A DNA stretch of 64,000 nt from Minisyncoccota bacterium (lineage in GTDB: Bacteria; Patescibacteriota; Microgenomatia; UBA1400; PJMF01). Positions 46,175 through 47,069 of this stretch are shown in pieces. Numbering within the stretch: position 1 is the first letter of the stretch; the number at the start of each line of letters is the position of its first letter. The notes below the pieces were generated by a model. That model was given only the letters and a program-made list of their open reading frames with translations, was not told the origin of the DNA and did no database searches. The DNA lies in contig JABGTR010000022.1 of assembly GCA_018646985.1 (NCBI GenBank), positions 4,343-68,342 of the forward strand. Direction: 5' to 3'. The translations under genes and the position numbers were made by a program.

Positions 46175-46462
46175 ATGAGCTTATTAAGTGTTCCTACAAG
46201 TAAAAAACCATTGTTTTGGTCAGCTGATATCAATAAACTGGATAAACAAAAACATAGAAAATATATCATTCATCAGGTATTGCAGTATGGCTCTATCACT
46301 GATATTGAGTGGCTCAAACAATACTACTCTCAAACAGATATTAAACAAACTTTTTGCGATCAACCTAGAAAAACCTACTCAACACGCACCTTTAACTTCA
46401 TTAAGAACTACCTATTAAAAATTAATGGTCACCTTGACCCCAATCAATATGTCACACTTTAG
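46175..46462 (+). CDS. Hypothetical small protein, candidate partner of the downstream nucleotidyltransferase
   Basis: It overlaps the downstream AbiEii-like ORF. No motif recognised. Confidence 0.3.
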   Translation: MSLLSVPTSKKPLFWSADINKLDKQKHRKYIIHQVLQYGSITDIEWLKQYYSQTDIKQTFCDQPRKTYSTRTFNFIKNYLLKINGHLDPNQYVTL

Positions 46463-47069
46463 TGAAAATACTATCTCAGATAAGCAAAAAGAGTTACTTC
46501 TCCTGCTTGCTGACACCAAACTCGGAAAACTCACTGGTGGAACTGCTCTTGCCCTTCAGATTGGACATCGTCTTTCTTATGATCTTGATTTTGTCACAGA
46601 TAAAAAAATTACTTCACTAAACACAAGTATACTTAAAAAGAAGCTGAAGTCTTATAATCTCACTCAACTTCTAGAAACAGATACTCAATACACTGCTTTC
46701 GCTGATGATATCAAGATCACTCTCTTCCAAGATCCTATTCCAACTACTCATAATTCTGTTTTTTTTAAAAATGCGGAACTAGTCTCAATACAAGACATTT
46801 TTGCAACTAAACTTTATATCCTGGGCAAAAGAGCTACTTGGAGAGATTATTGTGATATTGCTATTTGTTTAGACCAAGAGATCGTCACCTTAAAAGAAGG
46901 CATAAACGAAGCTACTCAGCGCTATAGTATTGCTGAAAGATGGATTCTTGAACCCATGATCTATTTCGATGATATAGAAATGATGCCAGTTGAATGGATA
47001 AAAAAAGAATACAGCGAAAAACAAATCAAAGAAATTTTACAAACTGCAGTAAATAATTACTTACAATAA
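46425..47069 (+). CDS. AbiEii/AbiGii-family (DUF1814-like) nucleotidyltransferase toxin-like protein
   Basis: N-terminal NTase motif KLTGGTALALQIGHRLSYDLDF (GGTAL...HR.S.D.DF). Confidence 0.5.
   Translation: MVTLTPINMSHFSENTISDKQKELLLLLADTKLGKLTGGTALALQIGHRLSYDLDFVTDKKITSLNTSILKKKLKSYNLTQLLETDTQYTAFADDIKITLFQDPIPTTHNSVFFKNAELVSIQDIFATKLYILGKRATWRDYCDIAICLDQEIVTLKEGINEATQRYSIAERWILEPMIYFDDIEMMPVEWIKKEYSEKQIKEILQTAVNNYLQ

Follow-up and report, generated by a model that had tools for sequence, protein, structure and literature searches.

What do two short, overlapping genes do in the interval between tgt and tsf-rpsB of a bacterium of the candidate phyla radiation (CPR)? The stretch of DNA analysed here, referred to as the window, comprises 64,000 nucleotides (nt) of contig JABGTR010000022.1, and a preliminary description made from its letters had recognised in this interval an AbiEii-type nucleotidyltransferase (NTase) gene preceded by an unusually short partner gene. 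We propose, with a probability of about 0.65, that the pair is a functional toxin-antitoxin (TA)-type module of Candidatus Pacebacteria (CPR/Patescibacteria), in which a DUF1814 protein would be the toxin and a DUF6922 protein the antitoxin. The features on which this proposal is built are listed below, where aa denotes amino acids and dN/dS the ratio of non-synonymous to synonymous substitution rates.

46175..46462, + strand: DUF6922 protein, candidate antitoxin (PF21956 match, AlphaFold model, conservation, dN/dS)
46449..47069, + strand: AbiEii/MenT-type (DUF1814) NTase of 206 aa, candidate toxin (PF08843 match, model, Foldseek, dN/dS)
46448..46462, + strand: putative coupling junction (read from the sequence; recurs in loci selected on DUF6922)
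46536..46592, + strand: toxin motifs I and II, including Ser43 (homologue alignments, published motif definitions)
46809..46856, + strand: toxin motifs III and IV (homologue alignments, published AbiEii mutants)
46160..46168, + strand: extended -10-like box TGTTAGAAT, an inferred promoter (sequence, the closest relative L002, family comparison)

The upstream open reading frame (ORF) begins with an ATG at 46175 and encodes 95 aa, and the downstream ORF as originally called (46425..47069, + strand, ATG, 214 aa) shares 38 nt with it. Both are genuine genes and not chance ORFs: each has a Pfam match above cutoff and each is under purifying selection. The 214-aa ORF matches AbiEii (PF08843) over residues 36-190 with 44.6 bits (cutoff 22.5, E 2.2e-11), and the 95-aa protein matches DUF6922 (PF21956) over residues 11-59 with 62 bits (cutoff 27, E 3.5e-17); comparison with the orthologous pair of a relative of ~82% identity gives dN/dS values of 0.13 for the toxin and 0.24 for the DUF6922 protein. 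The earlier assignment of the longer ORF to the DUF1814/AbiEii NTases, made from the motif GGTALALQIGHRLSYDLDF encoded at 46536-46592, is therefore borne out by Pfam, as it is by the motifs and predicted fold described below. Met 46449 (MSHFSEN, 206 aa), and not 46425, is the most likely start of the toxin. The rationale for this statement is that all 55 homologues in our alignment and the family hidden Markov model (HMM) start at the same position (MS...), that the source annotation (P0004) gives an identical toxin of 206 aa as 'nucleotidyl transferase AbiEii/AbiGii toxin family protein', and that the junction TATGTCA is conserved at this point. The 214-aa version is probably an over-extension, and the overlap between the DUF6922 and toxin genes is therefore 14 nt (46449-46462). 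The preliminary description had offered Met 46449 as an alternative start, and its 38-nt overlap holds for the ORFs as called and not for the real genes; the AbiE-like layout that it recognised, bicistronic with the antitoxin gene first and overlapping the second, is retained with the shorter overlap. The identical 95-aa protein is annotated as hypothetical in a Candidatus Pacebacteria metagenome-assembled genome.

Does the downstream protein retain what a DUF1814 toxin would need? Motifs I-IV of the AbiEii/DUF1814 proteins have been defined as hG[G/S], R-x3-D-h-D, K-x6-R and +DxxD (PMC3985639). With residues numbered from Met 46449, all four are present as L-T-G30-G31, R41-L-S-Y-D45-L-D47, K121-x6-R128 and R132-D133-Y-C-D136. 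Conservation was assessed in an alignment of 55 homologues (22-84% identical) and in a second set of 52 unique toxins from loci selected on DUF6922. Ten positions are invariant in the first set (L28, G31, L34, R41, S43, D45, K121, R128, D133 and D136), and G30, T32, A33, H40, D47 and I117 are near-invariant, with G30 and D47 present in 54/55. Among the 52 further toxins, the motif I and II residues are all invariant except D45 (51/52), as are K121, D133 and D136, with R128 found in 51/52. K173, R180 and D192 of AbiEii, the equivalents of motif III and IV residues here, are needed for toxicity, and mutating the AbiEii equivalents of the conserved motif residues abolishes it (PMC3985639). Moreover, Ser43 lies two residues ahead of the first catalytic Asp (S/T-x-D), is present in 55/55 and 52/52 homologues, and is positionally equivalent to MenT3 S78, MenT1 T39 and AbiEii T65, which are phospho-acceptors (PMC11375011; preprint 10.64898/2026.01.19.700257).

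The AlphaFold model of the toxin is of high confidence, with a predicted local distance difference test score (pLDDT) of 95.9 and a predicted template-modelling score (pTM) of 0.91. A Foldseek comparison with the PDB returned JHP933 (4o8s, E 1.8e-7), MenT1 (8an5_B, E 1.6e-5) and MenT4 (6y56, E 9.5e-5, TM score 0.63), each with a probability of 1.00, followed by ANT(2'')-Ia aminoglycoside nucleotidyltransferases (E 3e-4). At the sequence level a toxin profile reached JHP933 among PDB sequences with the motifs in register (E 3.4e-9), and only the profile did so; the single toxin sequence gave no significant match. Judged by family, motifs and fold, the toxin is an ordinary, already annotated member of DUF1814.

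The partner is of another kind. Its AlphaFold model, built from a 72-sequence alignment, has five helices (8-14, 28-38, 41-47, 53-62 and 70-80; pLDDT 93.3, pTM 0.83), and in the 72 homologues W15, L22 and G39 are invariant and Tyr92-Val93 near-invariant. The protein is basic, with an isoelectric point (pI) of 9.6 in the window and of 8.0-10.2 (median 9.7) in the family. Searches of the 95-aa protein found no helix-turn-helix (HTH) family in Pfam, no COG5340/AbiEi Pfam match and no HTH fold. Comparison with PDB sequences gave nothing significant (best E 0.5), MenA1 in 8AN5 included, and the model had no fold match in the PDB and no match in BFVD; in PADLOC the one match was weak and not to AbiEi (PtuA, E 0.019). 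The preliminary description had noted that the partner is shorter than AbiEi and devoid of a recognisable winged HTH (wHTH), and had suggested a new variant, with which the assignment to DUF6922 and the failure to detect an HTH agree. Ten longer CPR-type DUF6922 proteins of 128-186 aa were also inspected as candidates for a hidden HTH, and DUF6922 alone was seen, probably with over-called starts. The family is sizeable, as an HMMER scan of 1.84 billion representatives found 2134 clusters (50% identity) at E<=1e-3 and 255 at E<=1e-10, mostly of 90-125 aa. A literature search for DUF6922 found no paper, and in searches of the AbiEii literature a DUF6922 partner was not described.

How regularly, then, do these two proteins occur together? 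The question was addressed from both sides. In a sample of 13 loci selected on the toxin, all nine whose toxin is at least 28% identical (9/9) have a DUF6922 gene directly upstream that overlaps the toxin gene. The flanking contexts of these nine loci are all different and, in loci other than the window, unrelated to tRNA modification; examples are a BrnT/CopG TA system, a position between rpoC and translin/ribonucleotide reductase (RNR) genes, and a position adjoining Dus. Three more distant toxins are preceded by weak DUF6922-like ORFs, such that a DUF6922 or DUF6922-like ORF lies upstream in 12/13 loci, and a wHTH partner of the AbiEi kind was found only with the most distant toxin examined. 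A scan of metagenome contigs produced 408 DUF6922 relatives, of which 80 loci chosen on an intact DUF6922 were kept. Sixty-nine of these have at least 600 nt of downstream sequence, and an AbiEii ORF follows directly on the same strand in 66. The distance matrices of DUF6922 and toxin also correlate (Mantel r 0.449, a value that 0/2000 permutations reach). The pairing of DUF6922 with AbiEii is not due to chance.

When at least 650 nt of downstream sequence is required, 68 DUF6922-selected loci remain, in which 58 toxins are intact, 8 are broken and 2 are absent, so that about 15% of loci have an intact DUF6922 beside a broken or missing toxin. The lesions comprise a TAA nonsense codon (L029), internal deletions of ~85 aa (L032, L043/L044), frameshifts (L091/L092) and truncations (L056, L076), and L072 and L095 complete the list of loci with a broken or missing toxin. 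An alternative genetic code was considered as an explanation for the broken toxins and was discarded, the in-frame stop in L029 being TAA and not TGA. No intact toxin was seen without a partner ORF among the 13 toxin-selected loci. Such asymmetry of decay is what TA biology predicts, namely that the toxin is dispensable and the antitoxin kept.

Two of the sampled loci and one plasmid locus have further neighbours. The surroundings of the pair in L006 (1-7770) look like a mobile or defence-type neighbourhood: the island comprises two minimal NTases (NTP_transf_2/Polbeta), an ATPase with AAA_14/DUF4143 and a protein with HATPase_c/DUF4325, together with genes for a tyrosine integrase and a PIN-domain protein. 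In L011 (6529-10621) a ribonucleotide reductase large subunit gene with two intein/LAGLIDADG insertions lies 3' of the pair and a translin-family gene. The plasmid p16192 of Campylobacter sp. RM16192 (L028:2115-3609) encodes a 93-aa hypothetical protein whose gene overlaps that of a 219-aa AbiEii by 4 nt; the 93-aa protein matches neither Pfam nor the DUF6922 profile, a pattern 'IWFD...VIAYAMRYADLGDY' common to it and DUF6922 is visible by eye, and a zeta toxin and an MNT/HepT pair come next, which makes the locus a TA cluster.

A second architecture was found in Bacteroidota. Plasmids of Microscilla sp. PRE1 (pSD15; L027:2213-3352), Bacteroides fragilis (FDAARGOS_763 unnamed2; L109:2001-3445) and Phocaeicola vulgatus (pPvulCL10_1; L110:1920-3103) each have an AbiEii gene whose immediate upstream neighbour encodes a protein of 159-174 aa, in which an Xre-type HTH_3 is N-terminal and DUF6922 (PF21956, E 1e-21 to 1e-22) is C-terminal; a P. 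dorei plasmid also encodes such a fusion. In Microscilla 63 nt separate the two genes, whereas those of B. fragilis and P. vulgatus overlap by 4 nt. The toxins are of 198-307 aa, and the annotation of the pairs goes no further than 'helix-turn-helix regulator' and 'AbiEii/AbiGii toxin'. F14, W15, G39 and Y51 are common to the window protein and the fusions. The stand-alone CPR form has no HTH and carries a C-terminal extension of ~35 residues that is mostly missing in the fusions; on plasmids only the HTH-fused form was found. Just upstream of its pair, the B. fragilis plasmid has another AbiEii gene, after which comes a gene with a toprim domain (L109:1-1922).

The layout of the fusions mirrors that of AbiEi, in which a DNA-binding domain precedes a second, neutralising one, and by this analogy it argues that DUF6922 would be the part that acts on the toxin, with the HTH as an option added for autoregulation. 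An alternative hypothesis is that DUF6922 is a small basic helical protein that binds DNA, solely regulates transcription of the operon and makes no contact with the toxin, in keeping with the classical type IV (non-interacting) view of AbiE. The uniformly basic character of the family would suit such a role, and helices 2 and 3 of the model are joined by a two-residue turn with the invariant Gly39 in a superficially HTH-like manner. However, the failure to detect either an HTH family or an HTH fold in DUF6922 argues against it, as does the failure to find an operator-like inverted repeat upstream; a separate Xre-type HTH in the Bacteroidota fusions would be redundant if DUF6922 itself bound DNA, and AbiEi, MenA1 and MenA3 have all been reported to bind their toxins (PMC11375011; preprint 10.64898/2026.01.19.700257). 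We regard a purely regulatory DUF6922 as quite unlikely, and continue with the reading of DUF6922 as an antitoxin that acts on the toxin.

How would such a module produce antitoxin before toxin? The box TGTTAGAAT ends 6 nt before the DUF6922 ATG and is kept in the ~82% relative L002. Of 58 unique regions upstream of DUF6922 genes, 28 have a TANNNT box with precisely this spacing of 6 nt to the ATG, 17 of them with TGn, and a Shine-Dalgarno (SD)-like motif was found in none (0/58). A scan of the region upstream of the pair with the sigma-70 consensus called no promoter, because there is no good -35 element; the -10-only pattern emerged from the family-wide comparison. The search for operator-like inverted repeats in the same region gave only a weak 12-nt palindrome at the start of the neighbouring gene. 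The simplest reading of this arrangement suggests that the bicistronic mRNA is leaderless or nearly so. At the other end of the DUF6922 gene, the toxin ATG (46449-46451) lies inside codons Tyr92-Val93 (TAT GTC, 46448-46453), which accounts for the near-invariance of these two residues, and the overlap runs to the DUF6922 stop codon TAG (46460-46462). Loci selected on DUF6922 repeatedly show the junction consensus (A/T)TATGTCA; their overlaps are typically 20, 32 or 53 nt and all positive ones are congruent to 2 mod 3, and for 43/52 toxin starts the preceding 20 nt contain no SD-like motif. These features of the sequence point to a toxin whose translation is coupled to that of DUF6922.

The model that we favour can be stated as follows. 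Transcription from the -10 box 6 nt before the DUF6922 ATG would yield a leaderless mRNA and an antitoxin-first output, and the SD-less toxin start inside the Tyr-Val codons would make toxin translation dependent on ribosomes finishing DUF6922. By analogy with MenT1, MenT3, MenT4 and S. agalactiae AbiEii, the toxin would add nucleotides to tRNA 3' ends and block translation. DUF6922 would be the cognate neutraliser, in place of an AbiEi composed of a wHTH and a C-terminal domain (COG5340) or of a MenA protein. The basic DUF6922 may bind the acidic toxin directly and then occlude its active site; charge complementarity (median pI 9.7 for DUF6922 against 5.85 for the toxin family) supports the pairing. 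Alternatively, DUF6922 may push the Ser43 loop towards a bound nucleoside triphosphate such that the toxin auto-phosphorylates and is switched off, as in type VII systems. The CPR form would act without a DNA-binding domain, to which the Xre-type HTH of the Bacteroidota form would add autoregulation. The unrelated antitoxins MenA1, MenA3 and AbiEi induce auto-phosphorylation of their toxins (PMC11375011; preprint 10.64898/2026.01.19.700257). That DUF6922, as a structurally unprecedented antitoxin domain that stands alone and without autoregulation in CPR, would likewise induce auto-phosphorylation at Ser43 is a tentative extension of this analogy. If so, the stoichiometry of the two proteins might be set only by the leaderless mRNA and the embedded toxin start, a corollary that we hold with some doubt.

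How does the pair compare with known systems? AbiE of L. lactis and S. agalactiae (COG5340-COG2253) is, like the pair here, bicistronic, antitoxin-first and overlapping, and the PF08843 DUF1814 NTase with motifs I-IV is common to both, with T65 of AbiEii corresponding to Ser43. In contrast, the partner here has 95 aa instead of the ~200-300 aa of AbiEi, with no wHTH, no COG5340/AbiEi match and no fold match, and the toxin is about a third shorter than AbiEii, with a motif I-II spacing from G to D of 13 instead of 15. A canonical AbiE system is recognised by an AbiEi/COG5340 antitoxin, which the pair here does not have. A preprint proposes that AbiE itself be moved from type IV to type VII (10.64898/2026.01.19.700257). 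By analogy, the closest functional counterpart is MenAT1 of M. tuberculosis (Rv0078A/Rv0078B), which has a compact DUF1814 toxin of ~185-195 aa (206 here) that the model matches in fold (8an5_B). MenA1 is a small antitoxin without a DNA-binding domain that binds the toxin and induces auto-phosphorylation of the S/T-x-D residue (PMC11375011). Unlike MenA1, DUF6922 matched no PDB chain, 8AN5 included, and is thus not a MenA1 homologue, and the host phylum differs. MenAT3 and MenAT4 (Rv1044-45, Rv2826c-27c) also have DUF1814 toxins, MenT4 as a fold match and MenT3 with S78 aligned to Ser43, whereas MenA3 and MenA4 are AbiEi homologues (COG5340), unlike DUF6922, and their toxins have ~290 aa with extra C-terminal elements. 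JHP933 of H. pylori (PDB 4O8S / 4OK0), a putative NTase, is the best relative of the toxin among solved proteins in both sequence and structure. The HTH_3-DUF6922 and AbiEii pairs of Bacteroidota have the same PF21956 partner domain upstream of the toxin and differ in the additional Xre-type HTH. On these likenesses, the module may work in the manner of MenAT1 or AbiE while belonging to neither pair family. The coupling of DUF6922 to short AbiEii toxins, its two architectures and the layout with a leaderless mRNA and an embedded start do not appear to have been described.

Several observations weigh against this model. Of the PADLOC models, seven for AbiEii match the toxin, weakly and mostly in part (best E 2.7e-5, 22 bits), and neither the toxin nor the DUF6922 protein has a model in NCBIfam; by these measures the toxin clade is distant from the validated AbiE defence systems. 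The third carboxylate of Pol-beta NTases usually lies on the strand at a column where JHP933 has Glu and the clade here mostly Thr or Ser, such that catalysis in this clade could differ. DUF6922 resembles no characterised antitoxin in PDB sequence or fold comparison, and its antitoxin role is for this reason argued from gene order, conservation and analogy. The asymmetry of decay is partly one of ascertainment, since an intact DUF6922 was the basis for choosing the 80 loci, and the sample selected on the toxin was small (13). As to phages, PHROGs has no match for the pair or for either of the variable ORFs described below, none of 50 candidate stretches in IMG/VR viral contigs is a relative, and the only match in phage records is to the HTH region. 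Lastly, E. coli was not protected against phage by S. agalactiae AbiE (preprint 10.64898/2026.01.19.700257), so a defence function cannot be assumed for the family; for the pair of this uncultured host, a role in phage defence is no more than a possibility.

The wider meaning of the pair lies in the antitoxin. The MenT/AbiEii toxins form a large family that targets translation, and their antitoxins, in several unrelated families, seem to converge on toxin auto-phosphorylation. A new pairing with DUF6922 is not a categorical surprise, because the MenA antitoxins are already known to be diverse. If the model is true, DUF6922 would be another unrelated and sizeable antitoxin family (2134 clusters), stand-alone in CPR and fused to an HTH on plasmids of Bacteroidota gut commensals, and the pair would offer a minimal system of ~300 residues for asking whether antitoxin-induced auto-phosphorylation is general. 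The rule that DUF6922 precedes AbiEii would be useful to annotation and defence-finder pipelines.

A final question is how did the pair come to lie among core genes? Its neighbours are tgt (44025..45161, - strand; PF01702, E 4.5e-137) and tsf with rpsB (47089..48334, - strand), and between tgt and the pair stands an ORF of 290-295 aa (45209..46081/46096, - strand) to which no family was assigned. The pair occupies the same place in a relative of ~82-84% protein identity (L002-L005, one sample labelled hydrothermal-vent metagenome). In L013 and L014, whose tgt is 81% and 76% identical, the synteny nfo-folD-rpsB-tsf-[X]-tgt-LytR_C-TPR is kept, and neither DUF6922 nor AbiEii occurs in the DNA examined (4-8 kb upstream and 8 kb downstream of tgt). 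There X is queA (PF02547, E 4.5e-119), divergent from tgt (L013:3025-4104, L014:6904-7977), and queA also adjoins tgt in three more distant relatives (L015-L017). Nucleotide homology to L013 and L014 (blastn) stops at 45125-45134 and resumes at 47096-47098, which delimits one further feature:

45135..47095, no strand: replaced segment, with the variable divergent ORF and the DUF6922-AbiEii pair (blastn against L013/L014)

By this comparison the pair is accessory and was not gained by simple insertion, since together with the variable ORF it occupies the queA slot of the relatives. Of the inserted defence islet proposed in the preliminary description, the accessory status stands, a simple insertion does not, and the defence role is an inference. 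queA is absent from the whole window and, at this site, from the ~82% relative too, while tgt is intact; either queA has moved elsewhere or the queuosine pathway is truncated in this lineage. The GC fraction of the pair (0.326 and 0.340) is below that of tgt (0.419) and tsf (0.410). Its synonymous divergence (dS) from L002 (6001-6895) is 0.34 and 0.54, where the flanking tsf and folD have 1.32 and 1.82 (3-5 times higher). The dS values suggest either a cassette shared between lineages more recently than its flanks or a strong constraint on codons or composition. For CPR biology, this would be an accessory TA module that displaces queA at a recombination hotspot beside core translation genes.

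The position in a queA slot invites a different view of the NTase. As queA is the partner of tgt in queuosine synthesis, the NTase next to tgt might be a physiological enzyme that modifies tRNA or a small molecule, such as one that repairs or tags tRNA 3' ends or a nucleotidyltransferase of the aminoglycoside type, with DUF6922 as its specificity or activating subunit. The structural match to ANT(2'')-Ia and the purifying selection on both genes would fit such an enzyme. However, the varied surroundings of the other loci, unrelated to tRNA modification, and the lack of the module in L013 and L014 do not, and for an enzyme with a helper subunit one would expect the reverse of what about 15% of loci show, namely a broken or lost NTase beside an intact DUF6922. 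Moreover, the closest relatives of the protein are JHP933 and MenT (DUF1814), and every residue critical for toxicity is conserved. For these reasons we consider a physiological enzyme of this kind unlikely.

Could the pair instead be a decaying, non-functional remnant of a mobile element carried into a recombination hotspot? The tgt-tsf interval is such a hotspot, with queA in some relatives and the adjacent ORF swapped between genomes of ~82% identity, and about 15% of related loci have broken toxins. In the window, however, both ORFs are intact with all conserved residues present, the dN/dS values against the orthologous pair remain low, and the promoter box and coupling junction fit the family consensus. 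A remnant is very improbable, and a functional TA-type module is the reading that we retain.

The variable neighbour was examined in its own right. The divergent ORF (45209-46081, 290 aa) is replaced in L002 by an unrelated ORF of 274 aa (BLASTP E 4.2; window 45153-46060 against L002:5075-5899), with flanks that are 78-82% identical. The two ORFs share only their first ~6 codons (MNEEQEI / MNEEAEV) and the intergenic region, both proteins are acidic, and neither matches Pfam or PHROGs; the window protein has no match in PADLOC, NCBIfam or the PDB. Judged from this exchange, the site is a cassette-like variable slot. The ORF was considered as a third component of the module and set aside, as it matches no family, has no homologue beside other DUF6922 loci and is swapped in the closest relative.

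On the far side of the pair, the tsf ORF read from the GTG at 47616 (47089-47616, 175 aa) overlaps the end of rpsB, and the proteins of relatives start with MA(V/I)T(V/A)ADIKKL. The elongation factor EF-Ts of the window is probably the short form of 152 aa.

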